DNA of 57,359 nucleotides from a virus: the IMG/VR virus record IMGVR_UViG_3300011429_000011, positions 1 through 57,359 of that record, one strand, 5' to 3'. Below the pieces are notes generated by a model. That model was not told the DNA's origin. It ran no database searches and was given only the letters and a program-made list of their open reading frames with translations. Shown in pieces: positions 9,923-51,540 of the stretch. Within the stretch, counting starts at the first letter, position 1, and each line of letters starts with the position of its first letter. Position numbers and translations under genes: made by a program.

Positions 9923-10791
9923 TGGCTGGCCTCTTTCGCAGACTTATCGTTGCTGGCGGTGGCGCTGGCGGGAGTGATGCCGGTGGCGGTGGTGGCGGCG
10001 GTTTCGTCAGCGATACGACGCTAGATCTTGCACCGGGGACTTATTCGATAGTCGTCGGTGCAAGCGTTGCGGGTGGCTCTGGTGATGGAGGAACTGGAAA
10101 TAACTCGTCTGCATTCGGATTCACATGTAACGGTGGCGGCGGCGGAAAAGGAACGAGTGGCGCGGGTCTCAATGGAGGAACAGGCGGCGGTGGTGCAGGT
10201 GATTGGGTAGTCACTGGATTTGATATCGATGAAAACGGTGGAACTGGCTCTCAAGGTGGAAACGGCGGCAAAGGTCGTCGTGTTCAAAATGGTGATCCAG
10301 CCTTTGAACGAATTCTTGGTGGCGGTGGTGGCGGAGCAGGTGCTAACGGACGGAATGCTGAACAAGACGCAACTAACGTCGGCGGCTTCGGTGGTGCTGG
10401 TATTACTTCTGACATTACCGGATCATCACTTAAATATGGCGGCGGTGGCGGCGGCTCTGGTGAAGTAAACGGTGGCGGTGGGACTGGTGGAGATGGTTCT
10501 AACGTCACTGGTGGAAATGGTGGACAGGGCTCTGGTGGAGGTGGTGGCGCAGCTGACGCTTCTGACGGAACTGCGAATACTGGCGGCGGTGGAGGCGGAG
10601 CACCGATCTTTGGAACCTACGGATTTAATGGTGGGAATGGCGCATCTGGTGTAGTCTACATTCGCTTCAAGAAAGGCTATGCAATCGCAACGGGTGGCTC
10701 AATTTCTACAGTTGGCAGCGATTGGCTTCATACATTCACGAGCAGTGCTAACTTCGTTGTTACAAGTATCGGTGGTGGATTTTTCTGGTAA
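9922..10791 (+). CDS. glycine-rich tail fibre-like protein
   Basis: 289 aa, >40% Gly in GGxGG/GNGG repeats, with a C-terminal beta-rich end (GVVYIRF). TAATG overlap with the upstream gene. The DNA shows GGCGGTGG tracts. Confidence 0.5.
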   Translation: MAGLFRRLIVAGGGAGGSDAGGGGGGGFVSDTTLDLAPGTYSIVVGASVAGGSGDGGTGNNSSAFGFTCNGGGGGKGTSGAGLNGGTGGGGAGDWVVTGFDIDENGGTGSQGGNGGKGRRVQNGDPAFERILGGGGGGAGANGRNAEQDATNVGGFGGAGITSDITGSSLKYGGGGGGSGEVNGGGGTGGDGSNVTGGNGGQGSGGGGGAADASDGTANTGGGGGGAPIFGTYGFNGGNGASGVVYIRFKKGYAIATGGSISTVGSDWLHTFTSSANFVVTSIGGGFFW

Positions 10792-10800
10792 GGAGCTCAG

Positions 10801-12330
10801 ATGAGATATGTTTATTTTCTGACACCAAAAGAACTGGGAGTTATCGGACGTATGCGCCTACGTAGCGATAACGGTGAAATCATGGAAGCAGTTCACGATA
10901 CAGTTGCTGATCTTCCAGCGCTCGTCGTCACAATTCCAGACAGTGTCCCGAATGGAGTTGGTTGCACCCGTTATCTCGAAGCCGATGGTTATATTGCTCG
11001 AGAGGAACATGGAATCCTACGTCTCACGAGCATCAATCCAGTCACTAATTCAGTCGCATTCGAAAGCGATATGGGAACATTGGAAAAGGCGGGTAGCCGC
11101 CCTTTCGTACGTAGCGGCATCGTCCGTGCGGCGGGCCGCTCATTTCAAGATAACGAAGGATTTTTCTATCCGCTCGGTGAAACTCTGTTCTGGGCACCGA
11201 GGGGTTGGAAATTCGAGAATGACCGAATAAAGAAGAATATCGAATGGGCTGCAAGCTATCAGGTTGACGCCAATCGAATTCTCTGCGCGGTAGGCTGGCC
11301 GGGAAATGAAAATGATCCAACATGGCCGGACTATCAGCAAGTTCTCGCGGAGCTCATTGATTGGACGTATGACCAGTGTGGTATGCGGACTATTGCTACT
11401 ATCTGGGGTGGCGGTCATTGGGACCCTCTTCATACTACGGATCTTGTATGTAATGTTATCCGAGACCGTAAGCATAAGATACTCTATGCTGAAGCGGTTA
11501 ATGAGTCGTTTAATAACCTTCCGGATGTAGGCATAGTCCGGGAGATGTCAAGGCGACTCATGGCAACTGGCGTGCTCACAGTTTCGTCTTGCTTGAATCC
11601 TCCGACTATGGAGCAGTATAACGAACTTGCGCTTGGCTGCTCCAATATGACAACTGTCCATCTTGACCGCAGCTACGGAGATCTGGACTGGCGCTTCGTC
11701 CGTCAACCTTGGGATGTCAAGCAATTCCCCGGACCATGTTCGCAAGGCGAGCCAAAAGGTCCCGGTTCCAGTGTGTCCCCGTCCTCGAACCCACTCCAGC
11801 TGGCTCACGACCGACTTGTCGGGATCATATGTGGTGCAGGTTCCTATGTTATTCACAATGCAGCAGGCGTCTACGGTATCCCGAACAATAACGCTGGAGG
11901 TGGACACCGCACTGCGAATCTCTGGGAAATGCCTGGCATCGATGCAGTCATGCGTGTTGTCCGAAAAGCTGATTCAATTCTCCCGATTGGAGTAGAGGGC
12001 TGGCGTAAAGCGAATGATGGTTGGCGTCCGCCACTACAGCAACATCCACTACCCTCGCAAGAGTTCTGGGAAGGCGATTCCATTAATCCAAACGAACGTG
12101 GAGTCAACAAGAACTACTGTGCAATCGAAGGAGCGCATTTCGTCTGCACTCCAGCAGGCATCAAGAACATGGCGCATCTTCGTGCGACATGGCCTTGCAC
12201 GGTAAGGGTTTACGATACAGAACTCGCAGAATTAGTTATCGAAACAGATCTCGACTCCGGTGAAGACCTTTTGCTCCCCGGTGTGATGAATTCGATGCGC
12301 GCGTATACGGTCGTCGGAGACATCCACTAA
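10801..12330 (+). CDS. glycoside hydrolase-like (clan GH-A TIM-barrel) protein; tail depolymerase or endolysin candidate
   Basis: 509 aa, RBS AAGGAG. The motif …YAEAVNESFNN… resembles the NE(P) acid/base motif of GH5-type enzymes. It sits immediately upstream of the holin. Confidence 0.45.
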   Translation: MRYVYFLTPKELGVIGRMRLRSDNGEIMEAVHDTVADLPALVVTIPDSVPNGVGCTRYLEADGYIAREEHGILRLTSINPVTNSVAFESDMGTLEKAGSRPFVRSGIVRAAGRSFQDNEGFFYPLGETLFWAPRGWKFENDRIKKNIEWAASYQVDANRILCAVGWPGNENDPTWPDYQQVLAELIDWTYDQCGMRTIATIWGGGHWDPLHTTDLVCNVIRDRKHKILYAEAVNESFNNLPDVGIVREMSRRLMATGVLTVSSCLNPPTMEQYNELALGCSNMTTVHLDRSYGDLDWRFVRQPWDVKQFPGPCSQGEPKGPGSSVSPSSNPLQLAHDRLVGIICGAGSYVIHNAAGVYGIPNNNAGGGHRTANLWEMPGIDAVMRVVRKADSILPIGVEGWRKANDGWRPPLQQHPLPSQEFWEGDSINPNERGVNKNYCAIEGAHFVCTPAGIKNMAHLRATWPCTVRVYDTELAELVIETDLDSGEDLLLPGVMNSMRAYTVVGDIH

Positions 12331-17601: not shown

Positions 17602-18402
17602 TTACATCCCCTGAACGTTACCCGTCTGCGCGGCGACACTTTCACGTTCGAGCACTTCCGCGTCGAACGTATCCGCATCCGCCGGGAGCTCTTCCTCGAA
17701 CTTGATCGCTTTGTCGGCGACCGCTGCGAACGTTTTCTTCGCGTAATCGAGGAGTTCGCCACTGGCGAAGCCGGCGTTCTTGACCTGCGGGATTGCGAAT
17801 CGCCCCTTTGCGTTCTTCGTCATGATCGTACTGAGCGCGTAAACGCCGGTGAACACCGCCGTTCCGCGCATGGCGATCAACGCATTGAGCTGACGTGCAA
17901 TCTTCAGGCCGGTGCCCTTGAAGGAGACGGAAACGATTTCCCGTGAGGGGAGGAGCATGATCACGAAATCGTAGAACTTCGTCGCGATCGGTGGCTTGCC
18001 GTCAGCCTGGAATGCGGTCCGCGGATCGTTGGCCGGGACGTTGGGATCTTTCACGCCACCGCCAAGTTCACGTGGAACGAACTCCACCCAACGCGGTCGA
18101 TCCGAACGAACGATGATGAACGGCACCGGGCCGTTGCCATAGATCTGCTTCGTGAGGTTGTTGAACATATTGCCTTCAATCAACCCCTCAATGAACTTCG
18201 GGTCGCTCTCATCGCGTTCCGGGCTGAGCGACTGCGCGATGCCGAGTCGCGGCATCTGCATGTCGTCGCGTGTGATGTTCTCGGTGCCGGTGCGGTCTCC
18301 CACCTTGACTTCATCAGGGCGCTCCGCCACAACACCTTCGATCTTCATCAGATCGTTTGGCCCGGTCGTTGCCAATGCGTTCTTGTTCTGCTTTTCAGCC
18401 AT
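17602..18402 (-). CDS. hypothetical protein (GC-rich gene)
   Basis: 266-aa ORF. No confident motif. Confidence 0.5.
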   Translation of the reverse strand: MAEKQNKNALATTGPNDLMKIEGVVAERPDEVKVGDRTGTENITRDDMQMPRLGIAQSLSPERDESDPKFIEGLIEGNMFNNLTKQIYGNGPVPFIIVRSDRPRWVEFVPRELGGGVKDPNVPANDPRTAFQADGKPPIATKFYDFVIMLLPSREIVSVSFKGTGLKIARQLNALIAMRGTAVFTGVYALSTIMTKNAKGRFAIPQVKNAGFASGELLDYAKKTFAAVADKAIKFEEELPADADTFDAEVLERESVAAQTGNVQGM

Positions 18403-19015: not shown

Positions 19016-19657
19016 CTATTTCGTATACACGACTTTCACTCGCGCTGTGAGTTCCACGCCTGCTGGTGGCTCCTCACCTTTCAACAGCAATTCCTTCGCG
19101 ATCGCATTCACAGTCTGCCACGGCAGCGCCAACGAATCCTCGAGCCCATTCTCGACCGCCCAGATGCGATTTGCCCGTTTGTCGTTGACTGTGGCGTGAG
19201 GCTCGTATTGCGTGCGGACCGAACCGCCATCCTCGAGCGCGATGTTGGTCGTGCCTTCAGCTTCGTACTGCTCCGCCAGAACTTGCTTGTAGGCCTCTTC
19301 GACCACATTCGTGATCTTTTCTTGCGCTTCGAGAGCGGCCTTGACCACGCGGACGTTCCGATATCGACGGGCGAAGGTTGAGGCGTAACGCTGGCCGTCA
19401 ACAGTGCAGATGAGTGCGTCGTTGATCACCTTCAGAAGCGCTGTCACTTCGAGGAGCAAATCGTCAAGCGCGTCCATGCTCAACTCTTTATCGGAGCTGG
19501 CTGTGAACTCTTCGGTGAATGGGCCAGGATCGTTCTGAGCCCTCGGTTCGAGGATTGCAGCCTTGACGCCATTGACCTTCGCCTGAAAATCTGGCTCTGT
19601 CCCGAGGGACCGTGGAAGAAGATCAATTACGTGTGCGTATTTGCCCTTTTTTCCCAT
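19016..19657 (-). CDS. hypothetical protein
   Basis: 213 aa, RBS GAGGAG. It lies ~35 nt downstream of promoter P2. Confidence 0.5.
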   Translation of the reverse strand: MGKKGKYAHVIDLLPRSLGTEPDFQAKVNGVKAAILEPRAQNDPGPFTEEFTASSDKELSMDALDDLLLEVTALLKVINDALICTVDGQRYASTFARRYRNVRVVKAALEAQEKITNVVEEAYKQVLAEQYEAEGTTNIALEDGGSVRTQYEPHATVNDKRANRIWAVENGLEDSLALPWQTVNAIAKELLLKGEEPPAGVELTARVKVVYTK

Positions 19658-27248: not shown

Positions 27249-27791
27249 TCAGTAATTCCTCAGCTCCCAGATGAGAGTATTCCGCCGTGGTATCTTTCCA
27301 AGATCGTATGGGTATGTTGCGAACTCAATCGTGGCGTCTGGGTAAAGATCAAAGAGACATTCAATATCTCCGAAACTGTTTTCGCAACAGAAGCTACGAA
27401 CAATGGTTCTAGTTGATAGTCCTCTGTAGGGTCGCATACAACCTGCTGCCATTGCAGGTCGCATACGAAGACCTGTTCGAATTCCGAGGTATCCTTCCCA
27501 GCCAAAGATTCCTTGACAAATTTCACCTTGTAATTGAACATCGGTATCTGGGGCGGCTTCATCCATGATGAATCGTCGACCAGCATGCGACCAATCGTTG
27601 AATTTTGCGAAGAGATCGCTTCGAGGCACAACTGAATGAAGTCCCCCTCCCGCAATCCCAATTTCCCGAAATCCATAGTATGGACTCTCTGCGTCCCAAG
27701 CGTCTTGGATTGTTCGCCAGTTCCTGAGCGTGTTGCCAAGACAACCTCGCTCCATGAGCTCGTAGAAGTGAGACTTAAACCGAAGTTCCAC
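27249..27791 (-). CDS. hypothetical protein
   Basis: 180 aa. I chose this over the overlapping alternative-frame ORF 27260..27868, which is Ser/Arg low-complexity. Confidence 0.4.
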   Translation of the reverse strand: MELRFKSHFYELMERGCLGNTLRNWRTIQDAWDAESPYYGFREIGIAGGGLHSVVPRSDLFAKFNDWSHAGRRFIMDEAAPDTDVQLQGEICQGIFGWEGYLGIRTGLRMRPAMAAGCMRPYRGLSTRTIVRSFCCENSFGDIECLFDLYPDATIEFATYPYDLGKIPRRNTLIWELRNY

Positions 27792-28863
27792 CGACGCTCT
27801 CCGGCTTCTTTGGCTCTTCTCGTTTTTCGCGACGACGCTGCAACCACTCTCGACAAGCGCGGTTCCAATCGTTATCTACGCTCCCGAGAGTTAGAACCCT
27901 GTCTGCATCCCCGTATCTTTTCATCCGATGATATTCGTGTGCTTCCAAACAGACCGAAACTTCATGAGGCCAAGATCCCTTTGGAAAAATATGATAACCG
28001 GTATGCAATAGATCGTTATCTGCTAATGTCAAAATCTGTGCGATGTGTATATCGATCTCTTCTGGATTTTCCATTGGTGTATGATGCACACGTTCTTTGA
28101 ATGCATCATAGTAGCTACCAATGTAATCGCCACGATCGATCAAATTACGGATCGGTTCACATTGCTTCAGCGTTTCGAGATAGGCGTGCCAGTTCACACT
28201 CACCTGATACATCCGTCCCATCGGACAGCCAATTTTCAGAGCCATGTATTCGAGAAGCATGGAAAAATGGACGGCATTCGCGCCGTAGGCTCCCCAGATG
28301 ATATCGTTAGACCGGCAGAAGATTATTAAATCCAGCCTACCGATTTGATCACGCTGAAATGTGGCGGTCGTATTGCACGGAACATCTTTGCCTGGATTAT
28401 CCAAGTCAGTCTCAGCATCCCACATTTGTAGAATGCAACGACGATCATTTGGATCTTTCCGTAAGCGATCAGCGATCGCTCTCAATTGATCATAAGGTGC
28501 CGTTGGATGTTGTAAATCAAACCAATTGCGCCAACGAGCTCCGTATGCACCATGGAATGTATGGCCATCGTCAGAATAGCTCGCCATGTTCTTGGCATAT
28601 TTGACGACGCCAGCAAGATCGTCACGACCAGCTAGCATCCACAGCGATTCGTAGAGATGGAAGAATGGGTTAGCGTCGCGCTGCGACCAGAATAGGACTC
28701 GCTGCCACGGTTTGTTGTAGATCGTTGTGACTGGAACTGGTGAGATGCGGACTGGGCCGTTACGACTATCGCGATTGTAGCCCTCGTAGTGCAGATAGCG
28801 GAGCGCGAATGGCAGAGCTTCGTGGACGTTCTGCACAAAGAGAGTTTTCATTTGAAAATCCAA
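27775..28863 (-). CDS. thymidylate synthase-family enzyme (ThyA or deoxypyrimidine-monophosphate hydroxymethylase) with ~100-aa C-terminal extension
   Basis: …NDRRCILQMWDAETDL… (cf. ThyA RRxIxSAWNPxDL). Catalytic Cys in …DVPCNTTATFQ…. RSNDIIWGAYGAN resembles the ThyA RSCDVFLGLPFN region. Confidence 0.65.
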   Translation of the reverse strand: MDFQMKTLFVQNVHEALPFALRYLHYEGYNRDSRNGPVRISPVPVTTIYNKPWQRVLFWSQRDANPFFHLYESLWMLAGRDDLAGVVKYAKNMASYSDDGHTFHGAYGARWRNWFDLQHPTAPYDQLRAIADRLRKDPNDRRCILQMWDAETDLDNPGKDVPCNTTATFQRDQIGRLDLIIFCRSNDIIWGAYGANAVHFSMLLEYMALKIGCPMGRMYQVSVNWHAYLETLKQCEPIRNLIDRGDYIGSYYDAFKERVHHTPMENPEEIDIHIAQILTLADNDLLHTGYHIFPKGSWPHEVSVCLEAHEYHRMKRYGDADRVLTLGSVDNDWNRACREWLQRRREKREEPKKPESVGGTSV

Positions 28864-28965
28864 TCAAGTAATCGCACCATTAGTGCTGAAATGAGCATAG
28901 CTCGAAGACAAGAGAAGCAGACACAAATGCCCGGATCTCCGCAGAGCTTACAGGTTGTAAACCAC

Positions 28966-29661
28966 TTAGTCCAAGATTTTGGCGCCACTGTTCACCAATC
29001 TCTCCGGAGTTCCCCAGTCCTGGAAATTTGTGATGACATGCGCATATTTCGGCCCAGGATAATCATTCATGGCCATCGACAGATACGGCTCTTGACTATG
29101 ACGGATTGCTCGGCTGATTGCTATGTCCAGCGCAATCTCGAGCTTCCGAACTGAATTGAAGATGCGAATTCCAACGATCCCCCATTGAGAAATCGGTTCT
29201 TTCTCGACGAAGCGCGTTGGGAATGGGATTTGGTCAACTCGAGAGGCATTGGGGTCGAATGTCTGTGTAACTGCTACGACTACTTCCGCAATTTGCGAAT
29301 GTGTGATCATCTTGAAAATATCGATTGGATCTAGGACCATGTCACAATCAGCGATTAGGACAGCATCGTTAGCTGGGAGACCAATAATCGCTTGTCGAAT
29401 CGTATCAGCTTGTCCGATGGTCTCTATGACTATAGTTTTCGTACCCTTGTAGTCTTCAGGTCTTTCGACACCGGCTGGCAGTGCCGTCAGGACATATGGG
29501 TCCTCTACGGGCAGAGTTCCTCGAACATGGGCCAGCATTGATAGCGTTAGTCCATTTCTGTCTTGGACTTTTAGTAATGGCTTAATAGTCGAATAGCCGA
29601 CATCGGCAAATCGCTGAGATTGTCCGGCTGCTGGAATTATAGCCCACATTCGTTTAGACAC
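28966..29661 (-). CDS. sugar-phosphate nucleotidyltransferase-like (MurU/GlmU/RmlA fold)
   Basis: N-terminal signature AIIPAAGQSQRF, the G-x-G-x-R nucleotidyltransferase motif. Confidence 0.55.
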   Translation of the reverse strand: MSKRMWAIIPAAGQSQRFADVGYSTIKPLLKVQDRNGLTLSMLAHVRGTLPVEDPYVLTALPAGVERPEDYKGTKTIVIETIGQADTIRQAIIGLPANDAVLIADCDMVLDPIDIFKMITHSQIAEVVVAVTQTFDPNASRVDQIPFPTRFVEKEPISQWGIVGIRIFNSVRKLEIALDIAISRAIRHSQEPYLSMAMNDYPGPKYAHVITNFQDWGTPERLVNSGAKILD

Positions 29662-30380
29662 TTAATCCTTACCTCCCGACACCATGAAACGACGGATTCA
29701 CGTCGTTTCGGTTTGGAGAACTCAAATTTCTCGATTCGAAGTGTTGTTGCTGCCAACCAGAAAGAGACCTTATGTCGGATACTAGGATTCAGCCAAAAAT
29801 CTGGAAATTTATAACGAATAATCGGCTCTCCGTATGCAGCAACTTCCCATCCAAAATAAGATTGCATGATTCGTGCCATATCGCTTTCCCGGCATTGTGG
29901 CACGTAGGCTCTAGGCGGACGTGGATCACAGAGGATAAGTTGGCCGTTACGGAGTAGTGTGTTTGAAGCGGTTGGATCACCATGTGTCATGCAGAAAGAA
30001 GTCGGCACTGCCCAGTCCGGAACTTCAAGACCGAGCTCCTTGTGATGATCCTTATAGCTTTTACCAGCAACATCGTAATCTTGCGATGGCCGAGACCAAA
30101 CACGCTTCTTTAGTAACTCTGTAATTTGGCACAGAAGATCGGGATGACGCGCCGCCTTCTCGAGCTTCTCCATCACGTAGCCATCCGTCGTTAGACAGAG
30201 GATACGTGGCGTGACATCTTTACCGAGTACCTCGCAGTAAGCGCCTTCCTGAAGGCACTCCGGCCCGGTTTTGAAAACTGCTGGCAGCAGAAGCGAACCG
30301 CTATTGCCTGTTACGAAGTCCATCTTCCATTGCCCGTTTCCACTGTACGACAACTTCCATTCGAGGGACTGAACCTGCAT
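29637..30380 (-). CDS. APH/choline-kinase-fold phosphotransferase (anomeric sugar kinase-like)
   Basis: Catalytic loop …MTHGDPTASNTLL…ILCDPRP (HGD-x4-N…D), typical of APH/AmgK/NahK-type kinases. The 3' end overlaps the nucleotidyltransferase-like gene. Confidence 0.5.
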   Translation of the reverse strand: MQVQSLEWKLSYSGNGQWKMDFVTGNSGSLLLPAVFKTGPECLQEGAYCEVLGKDVTPRILCLTTDGYVMEKLEKAARHPDLLCQITELLKKRVWSRPSQDYDVAGKSYKDHHKELGLEVPDWAVPTSFCMTHGDPTASNTLLRNGQLILCDPRPPRAYVPQCRESDMARIMQSYFGWEVAAYGEPIIRYKFPDFWLNPSIRHKVSFWLAATTLRIEKFEFSKPKRRESVVSWCREVRIKCLNECGL

Positions 30381-31077
30381 AGTCTTTCTGGGTCACTCGG
30401 ACATAGGCTGGGAAGAACGACGCGAGCTTCATGACATCAGTATTGTTCTTTTCGACAGTGCGTTCGTTCGTGCAGCCACCAGGATTCCCGAAGGCTTGGT
30501 CGACAACGAACGAAAAATTCACGCTGTTTGGAAATCCTTTTGTTAGGAGCTGAAGACAAACATCCATGTCTTCATGCGTGCCAATTCGCCCGAACTCTGC
30601 GTGTTTCCGTAGTGTAGGAACATGGTAGCCGAGGACATACATCATCCTCTTACCGAGTTGCCATCCACCTGCTTGCGCCTTCTCGCTGATTCCACCGCCG
30701 CGAGCTGAGAATCCAGCATGAGGAACTTCTTCAGAGAGGACGGCGTCTAGCTCGACGAATGCTCGGATAATATCTTCTCCCTCAGCTTTTCGGAAACGTG
30801 CGGGATCATCTTGGCGTCGAACCGCGAACCGAAGATCATCATCGAGCATCACCAATTTTTCTGACTGTGCGGTTTCGATTATCCAGTGACGTTTCGCCGC
30901 AATCCCCATTTCTGGGTCGGGCTGCTCGCTCACTTCACAGGCTGGGAAGTTATTCCGATGGAAGACCGCTTCTTTTGGAGGACAGACAATCGTAACCTGC
31001 TCGTGCAGAGCCTTCGGCAAGTTCTCCAGAGTAGTCTGTCGAGAGATGCGGCCTTTAGTCGGGATGATGATCCTCAT
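30301..31077 (-). CDS. putative GT-A-like glycosyltransferase (DxD), paralog 1
   Basis: MRIIIPTKGR…VMLDDDLRF. It shares the N-terminal MKIIVPSIGR…FVDDDIR architecture with 31232..31990. Confidence 0.4.
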   Translation of the reverse strand: MRIIIPTKGRISRQTTLENLPKALHEQVTIVCPPKEAVFHRNNFPACEVSEQPDPEMGIAAKRHWIIETAQSEKLVMLDDDLRFAVRRQDDPARFRKAEGEDIIRAFVELDAVLSEEVPHAGFSARGGGISEKAQAGGWQLGKRMMYVLGYHVPTLRKHAEFGRIGTHEDMDVCLQLLTKGFPNSVNFSFVVDQAFGNPGGCTNERTVEKNNTDVMKLASFFPAYVRVTQKDYAGSVPRMEVVVQWKRAMEDGLRNRQ

Positions 31078-31334
31078 TGTCCGTGTTTCAATAACCTGAG
31101 TTGTGCCTCAGCTTCCGCAATTCGCATATAGGTATTGGAATTCGCATTTGCAAATCCAATATAGAACGGGCGTTCTAGCGCGTAGTCGATATCTCGTCGC
31201 AATGCTTCGAGATGATTGCGTCGACCACGCTCTAGCTCGGCAATTCGAGCTTCTTTATCTTCGACCACGCAACCCTCAATCCGATACCGATGTTCTGGCT
31301 GTGAGTCGTATTCTTTGTTTCCCGAATCGAACAA
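31074..31334 (-). CDS. hypothetical protein
   Basis: 86-aa ORF; overlaps the paralog 2 gene. Confidence 0.3.
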   Translation of the reverse strand: MFDSGNKEYDSQPEHRYRIEGCVVEDKEARIAELERGRRNHLEALRRDIDYALERPFYIGFANANSNTYMRIAEAEAQLRLLKHGQ

Positions 31335-31990
31335 ACGTGCGGATACAGATTCACTAATTTCATCAGGCAGTCGATCGTGATCTGTTCATTGCGCCACGAG
31401 TTGCAGCCGCCAACCGATGGGCTGACATTGCTGTGCGTTGCGCAGTAAGTGACAATCGTCCCATTACCTCGTTCTATTGCATGGATAACGAGAGCAATGT
31501 CTTCATAGACTGGCAATACTTCAAGTGGACAGTCGTCGAAGTGGGTGGGATTGATCCCATAGACGGTTGCCACGAACTTGTTACGAATCGCGAAGAAATC
31601 GTGACCGATTGTTTCAACTTTGTCTACAGCGTAATTCGAGAAGAGCTGCGGTGCGAGCCCTGCCATCGAGAAGCCGCCGAGACCGACATGCTCCTCGATT
31701 TGCTCGATCATCTTCTCGACACTGTTAACAGCCTTGAGGCTTACACGAATGTCATCATCGACAAAGATGAAAGGCTCCCGAACGCTCTCCATGATTTCTT
31801 TGCGGACGAGGCCAGTGTGCTTACAGCAGCTATCTGAGAGATGCATGATAGAGCAACCAGGATATGCAGCCCGGTATGCTTCGACTTCATCACTATGCAC
31901 AGCAAATACAATCGGACGATTGGCTTCCGGGAGCCATTTCATCGAATTGCACTTACCGGCTCTACCAATTGATGGGACGATGATCTTCAT
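31232..31990 (-). CDS. putative GT-A-like glycosyltransferase (DxD), paralog 2
   Basis: MKIIVPSIGRAGK…IFVDDDIRV. Paralogous to 30301..31077. Confidence 0.4.
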   Translation of the reverse strand: MKIIVPSIGRAGKCNSMKWLPEANRPIVFAVHSDEVEAYRAAYPGCSIMHLSDSCCKHTGLVRKEIMESVREPFIFVDDDIRVSLKAVNSVEKMIEQIEEHVGLGGFSMAGLAPQLFSNYAVDKVETIGHDFFAIRNKFVATVYGINPTHFDDCPLEVLPVYEDIALVIHAIERGNGTIVTYCATHSNVSPSVGGCNSWRNEQITIDCLMKLVNLYPHVCSIRETKNTTHSQNIGIGLRVAWSKIKKLELPS

Positions 31991-32193
31991 AATTCAGTTT
32001 GTAATACTGCTTGTCTTATGTTATCCATATTCGGAATATACAAGCCTTTGACGCGACCAGTATAGCCAATATCATTAATTTGTTTGATGGCGTCTTTCTT
32101 TACAACTTCAGAGATTTCTAAAACCGATTTATCTCTGAATTCGTGAAGATCTACGTCTACTTCTATGAATAATCTAATCCGTAGCATATTTCT

Positions 32194-33084
32194 TTACACT
32201 TGAAATCGCCGTTTGAGCCGCGAGCCACCGTAGGCGCGCATGTATTTGTCGAATTCACAATTCCAGTGCTCAACTTCCCGCATCTCCCATTGTTTCCATT
32301 CAGCAGGCCAATAATTCGGATTCTTGCTATGTTCGAGGAGCTCCTGCATGTATTCCAGCATCTTGCGCTGGTGTCCTACTGAACAGGAGAAAACATCGGA
32401 ATCGTTGTAGACGACCCAACCCAGTCCTCGAGCGCATCCGGGGCCAGCGTTTGCCCACGTCATTATGTCTTGTGCTTGATCAAGGATCGGTGTCCAACGA
32501 AGATCACTGACAGCTTCGTACGCCATGAAGCCGCCCATGAAATGGAGCTCGCGAATACTTTCCCATGCAACTCGAAGAGATCGATGTTCGGGTGGCTCAA
32601 CCATCCAGTCTGCAAGCATCCGTGGTAGCTGTGGCCGTGCCTCGTCGATGCAGGCCAGAATCCCTTCTAGCTTGCTGACACCATCACCAGCTTTGATAAT
32701 GTAGGCGCCTGTTACCACAGGACTGACACCAGTCAGCCGCGAACGGGCTTCCTGTGTATCCCAATCGTAGATGAGCAGATCTTTGATTGCTTCGCCAGTT
32801 TCGATACGATTGAACCAGCGGAAAATGAGCGTAGACTCTAATAGCTTCAAAAGTTTATAATTGCCAGACGATGGAAATCGTTCGAGGATGCCTTTGCGGA
32901 TCGTTTCCCGGAACCACACTGTTGTCTTGTCATCTTCACGATGAACTTGACAAAAGCGCCAGTTTTGAAAATGTGTGTCCGTTGTCCAGGGCCACGGTTT
33001 GCCAGCTTCCCGATTCAACTTTATCTGATAGCGTTCGCGAGCGGTCGCAAAGAAATGGTCAAGTAAGACGAATTTAGCTGGCAT
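32194..33084 (-). CDS. hypothetical protein in modification cluster (near-leaderless, first gene after P4)
   Basis: 296 aa. The ATG lies 11 nt after the -10 of P4. Confidence 0.5.
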   Translation of the reverse strand: MPAKFVLLDHFFATARERYQIKLNREAGKPWPWTTDTHFQNWRFCQVHREDDKTTVWFRETIRKGILERFPSSGNYKLLKLLESTLIFRWFNRIETGEAIKDLLIYDWDTQEARSRLTGVSPVVTGAYIIKAGDGVSKLEGILACIDEARPQLPRMLADWMVEPPEHRSLRVAWESIRELHFMGGFMAYEAVSDLRWTPILDQAQDIMTWANAGPGCARGLGWVVYNDSDVFSCSVGHQRKMLEYMQELLEHSKNPNYWPAEWKQWEMREVEHWNCEFDKYMRAYGGSRLKRRFQV

Positions 33085-33095
33085 TTGAGAAACCC

Positions 33096-33124
33096 ATCAT
33101 ACCACAGTTTTAAACCGATTGCAA
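33096..33124 (-). promoter_or_regulatory. conserved phage promoter P4 (TTGCAA-17-TATGAT)
   Basis: - strand: TTGCAA tcggtttaaaactgtgg TATGAT. Confidence 0.6.
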
Positions 33125-33286
33125 GCCACATTTTCATCGCGCTGCAATTTATGGTGATGTCAGGTGGAGTTCCAGGACTTCCCGTGGCGCGTCCCAGTAA
33201 TAAGGTATGGCTTACCCTTACCCGGTAGGTCAGGTTGCGCCACAGGGCACGCTAGGCGGGTCAAAACGGCATCGTGCGCGCAGGCT

Positions 33287-33838
33287 TTACCGGCCATTGT
33301 AGATATGTTTCAGGTTAACTATGGAGCTTTCTACTGACCTATGGCGAACAAATAGGCCACCCATATGGATCCAATGACCGGCATACTTCGTACGGTCATC
33401 AAGTAATACGTCACCGAGTTTGCCGTGACAATGTTTATCCTCGGAGAGACAACAGATGACCTGTTGATCAACTCCGAAGTTCCGAGCTACCCAGATTGCT
33501 TTTTGCTCGGCAGCATTCGTGATGCCAGTATTCGGTTTTGGTATACCGGTCAGGAATATAGGATCTGGATGGATCTGTGTTTTGATTGTGATCCAAAGTT
33601 GGAATGCGTTGGGCATCAACGGCATGTCACGAAAGAAGAATCCGTGATTGCGGATATTAGTCCAGAGGTCTGGTGGTTCGTATGTGTCTTGGTTTGGGCG
33701 AACTCCGAAGAGCTGCTCATAGAAACCATCCAGATCACCGAACACGCCATCGATATCAAGGTAGAGCTGCCTTTTCAGACGATCTGATGCGATCTTCGCG
33801 CGATTCAATGAATGCTGCATGGAATCTAAGAGGGTCAT
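33287..33838 (-). CDS. HAD-superfamily 5'(3')-deoxyribonucleotidase (NT5C-like)
   Basis: HAD motif I LYLDIDGVFGD. Start trimmed to MTLLDS (33838) to avoid overlap. Confidence 0.55.
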   Translation of the reverse strand: MTLLDSMQHSLNRAKIASDRLKRQLYLDIDGVFGDLDGFYEQLFGVRPNQDTYEPPDLWTNIRNHGFFFRDMPLMPNAFQLWITIKTQIHPDPIFLTGIPKPNTGITNAAEQKAIWVARNFGVDQQVICCLSEDKHCHGKLGDVLLDDRTKYAGHWIHMGGLFVRHRSVESSIVNLKHIYNGR

Positions 33839-34398
33839 ACCGTATAGCCTAAGAGACGGGCATGGTCGAGGAATCCTCGCTCCGCTGCGCGCCATGACCA
33901 AGGAGCCCACTTCCCAACTTTCTTGATCTCGTCTTCTGACGGCTTGGGGTAATTTGGTCTCTCGAACATATCGGAGTTATTGGCCTCGCGGAATGCTTCG
34001 TAGCGCACCATCAAGCGATCTGCCCATTCAACTTCAGGACAACGTTCCGGACAGCCGTCGGGATTCAAGTTTAGCGCGTCACATGCAACGAGCCAACCAC
34101 GCTCCTCGGCATCACGATATGCTTTCATTTCTGGCTCACATTTCAGCCATTTCAACATATCGCCGAGATACGCTTCAATCGCATCGTGAAACAAACCTTC
34201 ACGTTCCCAGCCTGTTCCATCTAACAAACGTGAAACGTAGACTTGATGTTGTGCAATGCTCACTGGTCGTTTCAGCGCACCAAGAAATCTGTTTAGCGTG
34301 GCCGTATGATGAGCAATATCGAGGATGACAATATCGTTGGGTTTCAGATCCAAAGGATTAACTACACGACCAGTGAAAGTGGTCATCCGTGGGGCCAT
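33835..34398 (-). CDS. HD-domain phosphohydrolase (YfbR-like 5'-deoxynucleotidase)
   Basis: …LFHDAIEAYLGD… resembles YfbR LLHDAxExxTGD. Earlier His residues IAHHT. Confidence 0.5.
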   Translation of the reverse strand: MAPRMTTFTGRVVNPLDLKPNDIVILDIAHHTATLNRFLGALKRPVSIAQHQVYVSRLLDGTGWEREGLFHDAIEAYLGDMLKWLKCEPEMKAYRDAEERGWLVACDALNLNPDGCPERCPEVEWADRLMVRYEAFREANNSDMFERPNYPKPSEDEIKKVGKWAPWSWRAAERGFLDHARLLGYTV

Positions 34399-35301: not shown

Positions 35302-35524
35302 GGTGCCAGTGATGGCACTTAAAACACTCTAATCGAGGATTCTCTAGTTCATCAACGAGCTTCTGCAATATCTCTCTATCTGGCCGACGCACAAGCCAGC
35401 TTACTGATAAATCACGAAGACGCTCTATTTCTACTTCAGTTCGGAACTTGAGCAGAATCATTTGCTGCCGCTGCCTCTGCGGCTTCTCGTCGAAGTTTTG
35501 CGAGTTCTTCGGCGGCACACGCAC
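35267..35524 (-). CDS. hypothetical small protein
   Basis: 85-aa ORF; overlaps the polymerase 3' end. Confidence 0.3.
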   Translation of the reverse strand: MRVPPKNSQNFDEKPQRQRQQMILLKFRTEVEIERLRDLSVSWLVRRPDREILQKLVDELENPRLECFKCHHWHRAGDCTMEDFG

Positions 35525-49252: not shown

Positions 49253-49498
49253 GTGGAGCTGATGAGCTCTGATGCAAAAGTTGCGTCTTTCTACGACTGG
49301 CTGCTTGACCAGAAACCCCGCCACGATCTTGTAGGCCGATTAGCTACAGAAGCACAGCGCGATAAAACCTTTCCACGTAGAGCGAATCGTCTTCACCTTT
49401 TCCTGCACTATTACGATCTAGAACACAATAATCGTAGAGCAGTTAAACTCGCACATGCGGAATGGCGACAGCTTCGTCGTAGACAAGGGAGCACGTGA
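49253..49498 (+). CDS. hypothetical protein (possibly YozE-like)
   Basis: 81 aa. …ASFYDWLLDQKPRHDLVGRLATEAQRDKTFPR… resembles the YozE family pattern. Confidence 0.4.
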   Translation: MELMSSDAKVASFYDWLLDQKPRHDLVGRLATEAQRDKTFPRRANRLHLFLHYYDLEHNNRRAVKLAHAEWRQLRRRQGST

Positions 49499-51540
49499 GT
49501 GTAGTGGACTTTCCTTCACCACCGGATTGGCTGAAGAAATACTACGAACGTGGATTTCGGCTAATCTTCTACTCAGAGAAGCAGAAGGGGCCAACTGGTC
49601 AGGAGGCGCTTAATTGGACTGAACGGAGTGACAAGTTAAACGATTGGCGACCAAATCGCAATGTCGGTGTCTTTACAGGGCACGAAATACAGCCCGGTAA
49701 ATTCTTAGTTGACGTTGACTTCGATTGGTCAGATGGCTTGCCGCTAGCAAAGCGCATTTTGCCTGCGACTGGATTCGGCTATGGCCGTGCTAGTCGCACG
49801 ATGAGCCATGCGTTCTACACATCACCAGAGCCATTAATCAGTATTGCGTTTGATAACATCGATGGTAAGCCCCTAGTCGAACTTCGAGGAACAAAAGCGG
49901 ACGGCACGGTCGGGATACAGACCATGTTGCCGCCATCTATTCATCCCAGTGGCGAAACCGTTGAACTGCGGATGGATGAGGAAATTGCCCATGTCGAAGA
50001 TTTGCATCGACGCATGTGTCTCTATGCTACAGCCTGTCTTATCTTTTCTGTTCTCGGGCATCGTGGTTTGCTCCACGACACTCGGCTTGCTGTGGCTGGT
50101 TTTCTTCTTTCAAATGGCGTCACGGAAGAGGAAGCGATTGCAATTGGCGAAGCGATTGCAGCAGCAAGCGGAAACAATGTCGCAGACGTAAGCGTCACTG
50201 TTAAATCTACCGCACAACGAATCAAGGCAGGCGAGCATGTCTTCGGGAAGACTGCGCTCATTAAAGCTATTGGTGACGATGGGAAGAAGGTTATTGCTCG
50301 CATCAAGGAATGGCTCGGTGGTAGCGACTTCCTTGAGAACGAGAAGGGCCAGATCATCCCCACCTCTCAAGAAAATATTCGTCGAGCGTTAGAGAAGATG
50401 GACATAACGCTGTGTTTTGATAACTTCTCACAGAAAGCGATGATTGACTATCCAGGCAACGGGAATGGCAGCGCATATCGCGGGCCGCTCGTTGACGCAG
50501 TTGTTCGACACGTTTGGCTTGCCACCGATACTCGATTCCATTTCCGCCCTGCCAAAGACTTCTTCTTTGATGTAACCGAGAACACAGCACATGAGAACAA
50601 GGTGCATCCTGTTCTGGATTACCTAAAGAGTTTGAAATGGGACGAAGTTCCTCGTGTCGATGATTGGCTGATCAAGGCGGGCGGAGCCGCAGATACTGCA
50701 TATGTCAAGGCTGTATCCTCGATCATGCTCTTAGCGGCGGTCAAACGGGTCATGAGCCCCGGCTGCAAATACGACGAAATGGTCGTACTTGAGAGCGCGA
50801 CCCAGGGATTATTGAAGTCCACAGCCCTGCGAATGCTTTGTCCAAATGAAGCATGGTTTAGTGATGATCTTCCGCTAAACGTAGATGCTAAGCAGATCGT
50901 TGAACGAACACTTGGTAAGTGGATAATTGAAGCGTCAGATTTGTCCGGTATGCACGCTTCGCAGGTAGAGCATCTAAAAGGTATGCTCTCCCGACAGACT
51001 GACGGACCTGTGAGGCTCGCATATGGCAGGCTCCCGATCGAACAACCGCGGCAATTCATCATTGTCGGGACAACAAATTCTTACACATATCTCACAGACT
51101 CTACAGGCAATCGTAGATTTTGGCCAGTCAGAATCAAACAATTTGATATTAACTGGATTCGCGCGAATCGAGATCAAATTTGGGCCGAAGCAGCGCACAG
51201 GGAGTCAGCAGGTGAATCTATCCGTTTACATCCCTCCCTCTATGCACATGCCGCGCTCCAACAGGAAAGGCGTCGCGCGGAAGATCCGTGGGAGCAAAGG
51301 CTAGAACGTGCGTTCCCGCGCAACAAGAAACATCGTCTGGCTCCGGATGAAGTGTGGGGTGCTCTAGGTATATCAATTGATAAACGTGATCAAAGATCAA
51401 ATGATCGTGTATTGAAGATCATGCACTTACTCGGTTTCATACGGAAAGCAGTACGAACCGAGGATGGAATCGTAAAGGGCTTTGCCCGAGATATCGAAGA
51501 GGGGCAGTATGATCTGCCCGAGGATAAAGATCATGGATAA
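49495..51540 (+). CDS. bifunctional primase-polymerase (PrimPol N-domain) with C-terminal VirE/P4-primase-C-like domain
   Basis: N-terminus …NVGVFTGHEIQPGKFLVDVDFDW… is PrimPol-like. The C-terminal ~350 aa resemble the VirE/primase C-terminal domain (…FIIVGTTNSYTYLTDSTGNRRFWPV…). Confidence 0.75.
   Translation: MSVVDFPSPPDWLKKYYERGFRLIFYSEKQKGPTGQEALNWTERSDKLNDWRPNRNVGVFTGHEIQPGKFLVDVDFDWSDGLPLAKRILPATGFGYGRASRTMSHAFYTSPEPLISIAFDNIDGKPLVELRGTKADGTVGIQTMLPPSIHPSGETVELRMDEEIAHVEDLHRRMCLYATACLIFSVLGHRGLLHDTRLAVAGFLLSNGVTEEEAIAIGEAIAAASGNNVADVSVTVKSTAQRIKAGEHVFGKTALIKAIGDDGKKVIARIKEWLGGSDFLENEKGQIIPTSQENIRRALEKMDITLCFDNFSQKAMIDYPGNGNGSAYRGPLVDAVVRHVWLATDTRFHFRPAKDFFFDVTENTAHENKVHPVLDYLKSLKWDEVPRVDDWLIKAGGAADTAYVKAVSSIMLLAAVKRVMSPGCKYDEMVVLESATQGLLKSTALRMLCPNEAWFSDDLPLNVDAKQIVERTLGKWIIEASDLSGMHASQVEHLKGMLSRQTDGPVRLAYGRLPIEQPRQFIIVGTTNSYTYLTDSTGNRRFWPVRIKQFDINWIRANRDQIWAEAAHRESAGESIRLHPSLYAHAALQQERRRAEDPWEQRLERAFPRNKKHRLAPDEVWGALGISIDKRDQRSNDRVLKIMHLLGFIRKAVRTEDGIVKGFARDIEEGQYDLPEDKDHG

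Follow-up and report, generated by a model that had tools for sequence, protein, structure and literature searches.

The 57,359-nt IMG/VR virus record IMGVR_UViG_3300011429_000011 (the window) carries a block of genes that appears to encode a pathway for DNA hypermodification. In the list of open reading frames (ORFs) the block is uninterrupted and co-directional on the minus strand, from 34398 down to 27249. We propose, with a probability of about two in three, that this phage makes and incorporates 5-hydroxymethyldeoxyuridine (5-hmdU) and then glycosylates the 5-hydroxymethyluracil (hmU) in its DNA. One glycosyltransferase (GT1) would use a donor made by a phage kinase and nucleotidyltransferase, and a second (GT2) would add a second sugar or modify other sites. 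An earlier note on this DNA had read the block as a dUMP hydroxymethylase with nucleotidases and DNA-base transferases, and family membership, diagnostic residues and conserved synteny support that core. Every gene class it named was upheld by Pfam, PHROGs, AlphaFold2 (AF2) models with Foldseek, or alignment.

The proposed pathway has two stages. Before replication, the ThyA-family enzyme would hydroxymethylate dUMP to 5-hmdUMP, kinases of the host or of another source would raise this to 5-hmdUTP, and the phage PolA would place it in DNA opposite A. Phosphatases of the HD and HAD families are presumed to drain competing dTMP or other deoxynucleoside monophosphates (dNMPs). After replication, glycosyltransferases of the TAGT family would transfer sugar to the 5-hydroxymethyl oxygen of hmU in DNA. 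A kinase with an APH fold would make the sugar-1-phosphate and the nucleotidyltransferase would convert it to a nucleoside diphosphate (NDP)-sugar, with GT1 as the user and GT2 adding a second sugar or modifying other sites. The resulting nucleobase, resembling base J, would be 5-hydroxymethyluracil in mono- and/or di-glycosylated form. A protein of family PF18723 would be an enzyme-like partner that acts on or binds hmU-DNA, independently of a P-loop 5-hmdU DNA kinase. These catalytic steps, like the acceptor, the kind of sugar, the sequence in which the two glycosyltransferases act and the substrates of the nucleotidases, are predicted from the family memberships, folds, diagnostic residues and synteny described below.

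The gene arrangement is conserved. A scan of IMG/VR with a profile of the kinase returned 52 loci. About 24 of these have the genes for the PF18723 protein, one or two TAGT glycosyltransferases, the kinase, the nucleotidyltransferase, the ThyA homologue and the HD protein in that order. Two relatives, L003 and L004 (L numbers mark the loci compared), share the architecture of the window, with proteins 45-60% identical. Since the gene string recurs in relatives and in about 24 loci, the arrangement is not due to chance. A polA gene lies near the cassette in every related locus examined. Among 50,697 deposited phage records, tblastn found no homologue of the kinase; metagenomes are therefore the only present source of the cassette.

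The ThyA-family enzyme and the predicted modified base

The ThyA homologue matches Pfam Thymidylat_synt (PF00303; 75 bits against a cut-off of 24.3, E 6e-21) and, over its full length (residues 5-352), phrog_5131 (E 6e-104). Its nearest annotated relatives are the M6-like and PaMx11 enzymes, with 44% identity over 94% of its length. It is 43% identical to the hydroxymethylase of phage PhiJL001 and 28% identical to SPO1 gp29. These relationships place it, by sequence, in the dUMP-hydroxymethylase clade of SPO1 gp29, M6 and PaMx11. The hypermodified thymidines of M6-type phages derive from 5-hmdU (Lee et al. 2021, PMC8989533; restated in PMC13458397), and 5-AcNmdU was identified in the same study as the product of the PaMx11 gene cluster.

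The active site was aligned with those of E. coli ThyA, T4 gp42, SPO1 gp29 and five phage homologues. The placement of E. coli ThyA in this alignment matches the PDB alignments. The catalytic cysteine is kept (C163 in VPCN, corresponding to E. coli C146 in APCH), and RSND aligns with RSCD (R166, S167 and D169). Among ThyA-family enzymes, Asn or Asp at N177 separates dUMP from dCMP as substrate, Leu or an acidic residue (Asp or Glu) at L143 separates a methyl from a hydroxymethyl product, and D169N marks 5-hydroxy-dCMP synthases (PMC13326640). At the N177 position the window enzyme has Asn, whereas T4 gp42 (RNDYAW) and MilA (SD) have Asp. Asp is found at the L143 position (GKDVPCN) and is retained at the D169 position (RSND). 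Together with a C-terminal extension of about 100 aa, these residues (N177 Asn, acidic L143, D169 Asp) are the full set of sequence features of a dUMP hydroxymethylase. The Asp at N177 that characterizes the dCMP and CMP hydroxymethylases T4 gp42 and MilA is absent, and so is the D169N plus N177D signature of 5-hydroxy-dCMP synthases. Both our alignment and the PDB alignments bear out the Asn that had been noted at this position as favouring a uracil substrate. The C-terminal extension, in contrast, had been described as unusual and is not: it is common to the clade, aligning with SPO1 gp29, the M6-like MP1412_16, PaMx11 gp51 and PhiJL001 gp24.

Either hm-dUMP or hm-dCMP had been suggested as the precursor. 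The uracil derivative stands and the cytosine derivative does not, as each of the 31 ThyA homologues linked to a cassette has Asn at the N177 position; two ThyA homologues lying 7.5 kb from a distant kinase relative have Asp there. In a cytosine-based pathway like that of the T-even phages, the ThyA homologue would make 5-hydroxymethyl-dCMP or 5-hydroxy-dCMP and the glycosyltransferases would act on the modified cytosine. The TAGT enzymes characterised so far do act on cytosine derivatives, and the top PDB sequence match of the window enzyme is the CMP hydroxymethylase MilA (E 6e-17). Nevertheless we consider this pathway very improbable, given Asn rather than Asp at N177, the retained D169, the 5-hmdU phage enzymes as closest relatives, the lack of any dCTPase in scans of the window, and the presence of PF18723, which is linked to thymidine hypermodification (PMC5889632, PMC9476957).

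Ordinary nucleotide metabolism would be the simplest account of a Pfam Thymidylat_synt match, and many deposited relatives are annotated "thymidylate synthase". The enzyme would then be a true thymidylate synthase and its neighbours unrelated auxiliary metabolic genes. There is very little room for this explanation. All eight NCBIfam thymidylate synthase models that matched score well under their cut-offs (108-576), the best being TIGR03283 with 68 bits against 174.55, so the enzyme fails as a canonical ThyA, and L143 is Asp, as in hydroxymethylases. The clade includes SPO1 gp29, annotated as dUMP hydroxymethylase in the SPO1 record, and a fixed gene order in about 24 loci from several lineages argues against chance adjacency. 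In agreement with the earlier note, no dihydrofolate reductase (DHFR) was found among the ORFs scanned, which did not include every small ORF. The note had preferred a hydroxymethylase over a true thymidylate synthase, and clade membership, diagnostic residues and the sub-cut-off NCBIfam scores all favour that choice.

Glycosyltransferases and the proposed supply of sugar

Two proteins of the block, described before as paralogous DxD GT-A-like proteins, both score above the Pfam TAGT cut-off (PF20691, 27.5 bits) and are members of the TAGT family of DNA glycosyltransferases. GT1 reaches 71.7 bits (E 1e-19) and GT2 31.3 bits. The best PHROG of both is phrog_842 (E 1.4e-43 for GT1, 6e-14 for GT2), the family of the T6 beta-glucosyl-HMC-alpha-glucosyltransferase. 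In each, DDD follows a hydrophobic strand (MLDDDLRF in GT1, FVDDDIRV in GT2). The two are about 20% identical to each other. In L010 and L012 the gene immediately upstream of the kinase is a GT1 orthologue (42% identity), and GT2 is absent from the single-glycosyltransferase variants L012, L032 and L040. TAGT enzymes glycosylate DNA bases that are already modified, as in T6 (PMC13390438), and the GT-A DNA glycosyltransferases of phages are similar in structure to the base-J glucosyltransferase of trypanosomes (Pyle et al. preprint). The ORFs scanned in the window and in related loci included no TET/JBP dioxygenase; the source of the hydroxymethyl group would be the ThyA-family enzyme, as in T6 and PhiJL001.

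GT-A enzymes and NDP-sugar pathways are also common in the biosynthesis of surface polysaccharides, and the majority of the glycosyltransferase-containing viral contigs of Pyle et al. have no adjacent base-modification enzyme. The phage could then have a plain hmU genome like that of SPO1, with glycosyltransferases, kinase and nucleotidyltransferase modifying an envelope glycan, a teichoic acid, a protein or rare sites in DNA. We think this unlikely. Both enzymes belong specifically to TAGT and share the T6 DNA glucosyltransferase family as best PHROG. They lie between the PF18723 gene and the hydroxymethylase, within the replication module and in a fixed order in many lineages, and window scans found no glycan membrane, flippase or polymerase genes nearby.

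Glycosylation of hmU would require a sugar donor, and the kinase and nucleotidyltransferase are candidates for supplying it. The kinase had no match in Pfam or in PDB sequence searches. Residues K18, HGDPTxSN and CDPRPPR are invariant; in the wider family, Lys18, HGDxxxxN (H114-G-D116-x4-N121) and a downstream Asp (D133) are. The members of this family are small, about 210-270 aa, and fall into 568 clusters at 50% identity. Pfam APH is weakly matched by 7 of 41 relatives and not by the window kinase itself. Its AF2 model (pLDDT 93) best matches choline/ethanolamine kinases, LicA, APH and maltokinase in Foldseek, with probability 1.0 and TMq up to 0.67. An APH-fold kinase, as called in the earlier note, is thus supported by Brenner-type motifs, the N-lobe Lys and the predicted fold.

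The nucleotidyltransferase carries the motif AAGQSQRF...KPLL, in which A12, G13, S15, R17 and K27 are invariant. Pfam NTP_transf_3 matches it with 25.3 bits, just under the cut-off of 27, and the NCBIfam sugar nucleotidyltransferase match is likewise sub-threshold. Foldseek with its AF2 model (pLDDT 97) returned more than 40 structures of sugar-1-phosphate nucleotidyltransferases (E 8e-13 to 1e-10, TMq 0.6-0.79); the top 50 include 4evw, RmlA, GalU, the GlmU N-domain, HddC, and GDP-mannose and ADP-glucose pyrophosphorylases. The GxGxR nucleotidyltransferase proposed before therefore holds, through the motif with its following Lys and this fold. PDB sequence searches with the kinase, the nucleotidyltransferase, the PF18723 protein and GT1 gave only chance matches (CD69, TNFR).

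Most likely the kinase and nucleotidyltransferase make an NDP-sugar donor rather than acting on DNA, because their genes are always adjacent, they coexist with a P-loop kinase in some loci, and related gene sets have been published. The two genes overlap in the window and are never apart in cassette loci. For the kinase the predicted substrate is a sugar or a sugar-phosphate, with phosphorylation at the anomeric position. Heptosylation of 5-hydroxymethylcytosine (5hmC) required a bifunctional HAD/APH enzyme, a cytidylyltransferase and a DNA glycosyltransferase (Pyle et al. preprint), and AfhE/AfhF of HY126 with their RB69 and DLP3 counterparts (kinase, HAD phosphatase, nucleotidyltransferase) produce UDP-arabinofuranose for DNA arabinosylation.

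Variants of the cassette are informative about the kinase. In L010/L011 and L020/L021 a P-loop kinase gene stands between two TAGT genes, and the APH-fold kinase is still beside the nucleotidyltransferase. The P-loop protein of L010/L011 is 29% identical to PaMx11 gp49 (E 5e-15). Because both kinases coexist there, they are not interchangeable. In L010/L011, positions 7992-8546 encode this homologue of the P-loop 5-hmdU DNA kinase and 10705-11178 a UDG-superfamily gene after the nucleotidyltransferase, and L020/L021 are similar; this lineage may be a hybrid of phospho-activation and glycosylation chemistry. L012, L013 and L035 have one TAGT (the GT1 orthologue), kinase, HAD, nucleotidyltransferase, Nmad5, hydroxymethylase and HD genes.

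Distant relatives of the kinase occur in kinase-HAD-nucleotidyltransferase triads in L043 (6760-13514 of a 116.8-kb IMG/VR contig) and, similarly, in L062. The L043 triad is flanked by proteins of 415 aa and 340 aa (no Pfam match), dUTPase_2 and a C5-cytosine DNA methylase. It is probably a cytosine-type sugar hypermodification cluster.

The HAD protein of the window (motif DxDG, LYLDIDGVF) was considered as a sugar-bisphosphate phosphatase of the donor pathway, like RB69 gp51 or AfhF, and rejected. It is unlike the inter-gene HADs of L012, L043 and L063; the L012 protein is homologous to that of the L043 triad, and the window HAD is unrelated to both. The genes related to it are NT5C-like and belong to phages for which no sugar modification is known, mostly phages of Alphaproteobacteria along with Xanthomonas phages, in which they are annotated as deoxyribonucleotidases. 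Given this dissimilarity it is kept as a putative nucleotidase, with matches to phrog_2643 ("5'-3' deoxyribonucleotidase", E 2.5e-25) and weakly to Pfam NT5C (0.009). The HD protein has no Pfam match alone. It was found with a hidden Markov model of syntenic HD genes, including PhiJL001 gp25 (YfbR-like, 1.9e-5), and matches phrog_318 ("deoxyribonucleoside 5' monophosphate phosphatase", E 8e-30). Going by family annotation, the two may be dNMP phosphatases. The HAD NT5C-like and HD YfbR-like nucleotidases of the earlier note thus stand as families, with substrates predicted by annotation. In PhiJL001, gp16 (L009, 6662-7240), a few genes upstream of the hmU/TAGT block, has the N-terminal domain of a dATP/dGTP diphosphohydrolase (E 1e-22), which hints at further manipulation of the nucleotide pool.

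The PF18723 protein and the rest of the block

The 296-aa protein, reported before as part of the hypermodification block but of unknown type, does belong to the block and can now be assigned to PF18723 (aGPT-Pplase1/HMUDK_hel). The Pfam HMUDK_hel match is full-length (residues 8-284 on profile positions 4-274 of 281; E 3.4e-33, 115.7 bits against a cut-off of 25). With 46% identity to PaMx11 gp50, 42% to the PhiJL001 protein and 31% to MP1412_14 (M6 gp55 type), it is the orthologue of M6 gp55/MP1412_14 and PaMx11 gp50. Across eight PF18723 members from glycosyltransferase and amino-acid contexts, 33 columns are invariant, including a GPGxxRG hairpin and several acidic residues. The pattern resembles a conserved active site more than it does a simple module for binding DNA. 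The PF18723 paralogue has been named aGPT-Pplase1 (PMC9476957). It is distinct from aGPT-Pplase2, the amino-acid:DNA transferases (AADTs) M6 gp51 and PaMx11 gp46, whose activity is established (Lee et al. 2021, PMC8989533). Omission of M6 gp55 had no effect on the reaction in vitro (PMC8989533), and our literature search found no paper assigning a function to aGPT-Pplase1/PF18723.

The partners expected of this family are not seen in the window. No P-loop 5-hmdU DNA kinase was found by tblastn with MP1412_13, PaMx11 gp49 and the L010 homologue in the window and the 9.4 kb upstream of it. Among plausible window genes, Walker A occurs only in a UvrD-type helicase and an unannotated 681-aa ORF (49495-51540) of the structural module. 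For aGPT-Pplase2/AADT, tblastn of the window with MP1412_10 (the M6 gp51 orthologue) gave nothing significant (best E 0.34), and a single PF18723-type gene was found.

These observations bear on a second possible chemistry, in which hmU in DNA would be phosphorylated by the APH-fold kinase, the PF18723 protein would exchange the phosphate for a nucleophile as its aGPT-Pplase2/AADT relatives do, and the glycosyltransferases would decorate the adduct. PF18723 normally accompanies a 5-hmdU DNA kinase (M6 gp54/gp55, PaMx11 gp49/gp50). The SP10 gp186 kinase is fused to an aG/PT-PPlase-type domain (PMC5889632), which from the family name would be PF18723. The window, with no P-loop kinase, still retains a PF18723 protein with its 33 invariant, enzyme-like positions. 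Against this, the APH-fold kinase gene is always paired with the sugar-1-phosphate nucleotidyltransferase gene, which it overlaps, and coexists with a P-loop 5-hmdU DNA kinase homologue in L010/L011/L020/L021; relatives from the same kinase family occur in a cytosine-methylase context with HAD and nucleotidyltransferase. PhiJL001 has PF18723 and TAGT with neither kinase type in nt 4268-63649, and M6 gp55 was needed neither for phosphorylation nor for transfer in vitro. We judge this chemistry quite unlikely. Nucleotidyltransferase coupling and co-occurrence with the P-loop kinase likewise led us to reject the APH-fold kinase as a stand-in for the 5-hmdU DNA kinase in our preferred reading, glycosylation of hmU with a phage-made donor.

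PF18723 is kept in cassettes with no 5-hmdU DNA kinase of any kind (the window group, the L012 group and PhiJL001), so its function there cannot depend on phosphorylated hmU. As a working guess, held with low confidence, it may recognize hmU-DNA or present the base, serving whichever downstream enzyme is present.

Several points weigh against glycosylated hmU as the product. The literature holds no chemical data that we could find for the window phage or any relative, and the acceptor of a TAGT enzyme (hmU or another) cannot be read from its sequence. The nearest structures to the kinase are choline/ethanolamine kinases and not sugar kinases, at 10-15% identity and E about 1e-4; because these nearest folds are matched at low identity, a LicA/LicC-like phospho-alcohol (non-sugar) donor is possible. 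The simple model assigns no task to the conserved, enzyme-like PF18723 protein. Window scans found no dNMP kinase, dUTPase/dTTPase or dCMP deaminase, and no ribonucleotide reductase. With these pool enzymes not found in the window, replacement of thymine may be only partial. Finally, our coverage of the genome falls about 6.5 kb short of about 73 kb: the same phage is also present on ENA contigs of 73.3-73.5 kb, and the 9.4 kb upstream of the window start hold structural genes (connector, tail proteins; most ORFs with no Pfam match).

A broader reading joins two ideas and is put forward tentatively; we would not bet on it. A widespread lineage of uncultured phages of about 73 kb would replace T with O-glycosyl-hmU carrying a non-host sugar activated by the phage, and PF18723 would be a kinase-independent enzyme common to all 5-hmdU phages. 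The sugar would then not be a standard host UDP-hexose and could be a heptose, a pentofuranose or another salvage-derived sugar. One candidate function of PF18723 would be to decide which hmU is modified, reverted or left alone. If true, this would give phages their first counterpart of base J, made by the pre-replicative ThyA route.

The features of the block are listed in Table 1. All eight minus-strand genes described previously are present in the ORF listing. Their positions stand, and the likely starts of the hydroxymethylase, kinase and HAD genes are later than those of the longest ORFs; revised starts were taken from gene calls on identical public contigs. Several neighbouring genes overlap, by a few to 25 bases.

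Table 1. Genes of the predicted hypermodification block, with the upstream DNA polymerase for context (window coordinates).
Feature	Position	Strand	Basis
HD-domain phosphohydrolase, YfbR-like 5'-deoxynucleotidase type, 187 aa; first gene of block	33835..34398	-	phrog_318
HAD-superfamily phosphatase, NT5C-like, 183 aa from Met25 (longest ORF to 33910)	33287..33838	-	phrog_2643
PF18723 protein (aGPT-Pplase clade 1/HMUDK_hel), 296 aa	32194..33084	-	Pfam
Small gene between PF18723 gene and GT2, 66 aa	31987..32187	-	gene calls
GT2, putative TAGT-family GT-A glycosyltransferase, 252 aa	31232..31990	-	Pfam TAGT, phrog_842
GT1, putative TAGT-family GT-A glycosyltransferase, 258 aa	30301..31077	-	Pfam TAGT, phrog_842
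Small kinase, choline-kinase/APH fold, 228 aa	29637..30323	-	motifs, AF2/Foldseek
Sugar-1-phosphate nucleotidyltransferase (NDP-sugar pyrophosphorylase) fold, 231 aa	28966..29661	-	motif, AF2/Foldseek
Putative dUMP hydroxymethylase, SPO1 gp29/M6 clade, 358 aa from ATG (362 aa from TTG at 28863)	27775..28851	-	phrog_5131
180-aa protein immediately downstream of hydroxymethylase; 17-nt overlap with its stop	27249..27791	-	synteny
Family-A DNA polymerase, about 1 kb upstream of block (context)	35436..37403	-	PF00476 DNA_pol_A in identical contigs

Two genes of the block go beyond the eight. The 66-aa gene is called in three independent contigs and has no family match; L003, L004 and L010 have a small ORF at its place with no detectable sequence similarity. 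The 180-aa protein has no match in Pfam, PHROGs or NCBIfam. Syntenic homologues (32-38% identity) follow the hydroxymethylase in L003 and L004, and from this position it may be part of the pathway. An 86-aa ORF (31074-31334, minus strand) fills the 154-nt gap before GT1 (31078-31231) and extends over the 3' end of GT2. It is unlikely to be a gene: it has no family match and is called inconsistently, as a 64-aa version in L006 and L007 and not in L005, three contigs with an identical kinase. Promoter and terminator scans found sites no more numerous than in shuffled sequence, so we claim no operon boundaries. A megablast of 24 kb against the 50,697 phage records found no nucleotide relatives.

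Other genes of the window lie outside the block. Directly upstream of the gene for the DNA polymerase, and overlapping it, is a gene for a 108-aa protein with a CxxCxxCC zinc/iron-chelating domain (37387-37713, minus strand). A 385-aa protein (38814-39971, minus strand) combines a YgjP/WLM-like metallopeptidase motif with DUF7168 and has the same position in all related contigs. Just upstream of that gene in L004 (1-198 of a 71.9-kb contig from JGI 3300063176) is an adenylosuccinate-synthetase-family gene (363 aa, possibly PurZ-like), with no counterpart seen in the window; if it is PurZ, this relative might combine 2-aminoadenine with modified thymine. In an 852-aa protein (41642-44200, minus strand) the shoulder domain of the Major Vault Protein (E 1.9e-26) occurs together with a Vault_3 repeat and a region of SPFH/Band-7 type, a domain set unexpected in a phage replication module. 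Homologues of cyanophage Pam3 gp34 (E 2e-34) and a gp33-like DUF7307 protein are encoded at 17602-18402 and 19016-19657 (minus strand), among early/replication genes.

Comparison with known systems

The clusters of M6/YuA/MP1412 and PaMx11 (Lee et al. 2018, 2021) resemble the window in having an orthologous hydroxymethylase with the same extension, PF18723, an HD phosphohydrolase and placement by a family-A DNA polymerase. In contrast to these clusters, neither a P-loop 5-hmdU DNA kinase nor an aGPT-Pplase2 transferase is seen in the window, and tailoring genes of the pyridoxal phosphate (PLP), radical-SAM, FAD or acetyltransferase kinds are missing too. What the window has instead are two TAGT glycosyltransferases and the kinase/nucleotidyltransferase pair.

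PhiJL001 (AY576273), a phage of Alphaproteobacteria, is the only cultured phage we found with PF18723, TAGT, an SPO1-type hydroxymethylase and HD in one block (gp19-gp25, which also includes Nmad5). Its TAGT is 29% identical to GT1 of the window. In contrast to the window it has a single glycosyltransferase, an Nmad5 gene and no APH-fold kinase or nucleotidyltransferase in nt 4268-63649, and would therefore have to use a host sugar donor. We found no paper on PhiJL001 DNA chemistry in our literature search.

The same donor logic as in the window is seen in the 5hmC sugar clusters (Pyle et al. 2023, contig 53, heptosyl-5hmC) and in the arabinosyl-5-hydroxycytosine phages RB69, DLP3 and HY126. 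In each, a phage APH-type kinase, an optional HAD and a nucleotidyltransferase lead to an NDP-sugar and on to a DNA glycosyltransferase. These systems modify cytosine derivatives, made by a methylase with a TET-like dioxygenase or by a D169N ThyA-family hydroxylase. The window differs in its dUMP-type hydroxymethylase, its PF18723 protein, and a separate kinase and nucleotidyltransferase with no HAD between them.

The T-even phages T4 and T6 share with the window the use of a ThyA-family hydroxymethylase before replication and glycosyltransferases after it, and the T6 transferase for the second glucose is a TAGT. Their modified base is cytosine (Asp at N177), and the T4 dCTPase (gp56) and the GT-B alpha- and beta-glucosyltransferases are absent from the window. 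The T4 sugar donor is host UDP-glucose.

Base J is the same chemical type as the predicted product of the window, an O-glycosylated 5-hydroxymethyluracil. The hmU of base J is made post-replicatively by the JBP dioxygenases, at about 1% of T (PMC4344527). In the window phage a ThyA-family enzyme would form hmU at the nucleotide level, and much of T, or all of it, could be replaced; no dioxygenase was found in the window, and the sugar may not be glucose.

Each component family is already known. The known phage thymine hypermodifications are amino acids or polyamines attached through a phosphorylated hmU intermediate, and to our knowledge it is derivatives of cytosine that carry the known glycosylations of phage DNA. 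Glycosylated hmU in phage DNA has been predicted before, and no measurement of it was found in the searchable literature. Pyle et al. counted GT-A genes beside "ThyS" genes and mentioned APH phosphotransferases in such contigs, and the GenBank record of PhiJL001 annotates a glucosyl transferase beside the hydroxymethylase. The combination of a uracil-type hydroxymethylase, PF18723 with no kinase, TAGT and a dedicated kinase/nucleotidyltransferase donor route is apparently undescribed in the same literature. If the product is confirmed, glycosylated hmU would be a new class of natural DNA base in phages, with a bearing on evasion of restriction, CRISPR and type IV systems. Its enzymes could serve for site-selective labelling of 5hmU, and the cassette, with no 5-hmdU DNA kinase or amino-acid transferase, would offer a clean genetic setting for finding the function of PF18723. 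In this cassette, TAGT glycosyltransferases and what appears to be a self-contained supply of NDP-sugar are combined with the hmU branch of the ThyA superfamily.

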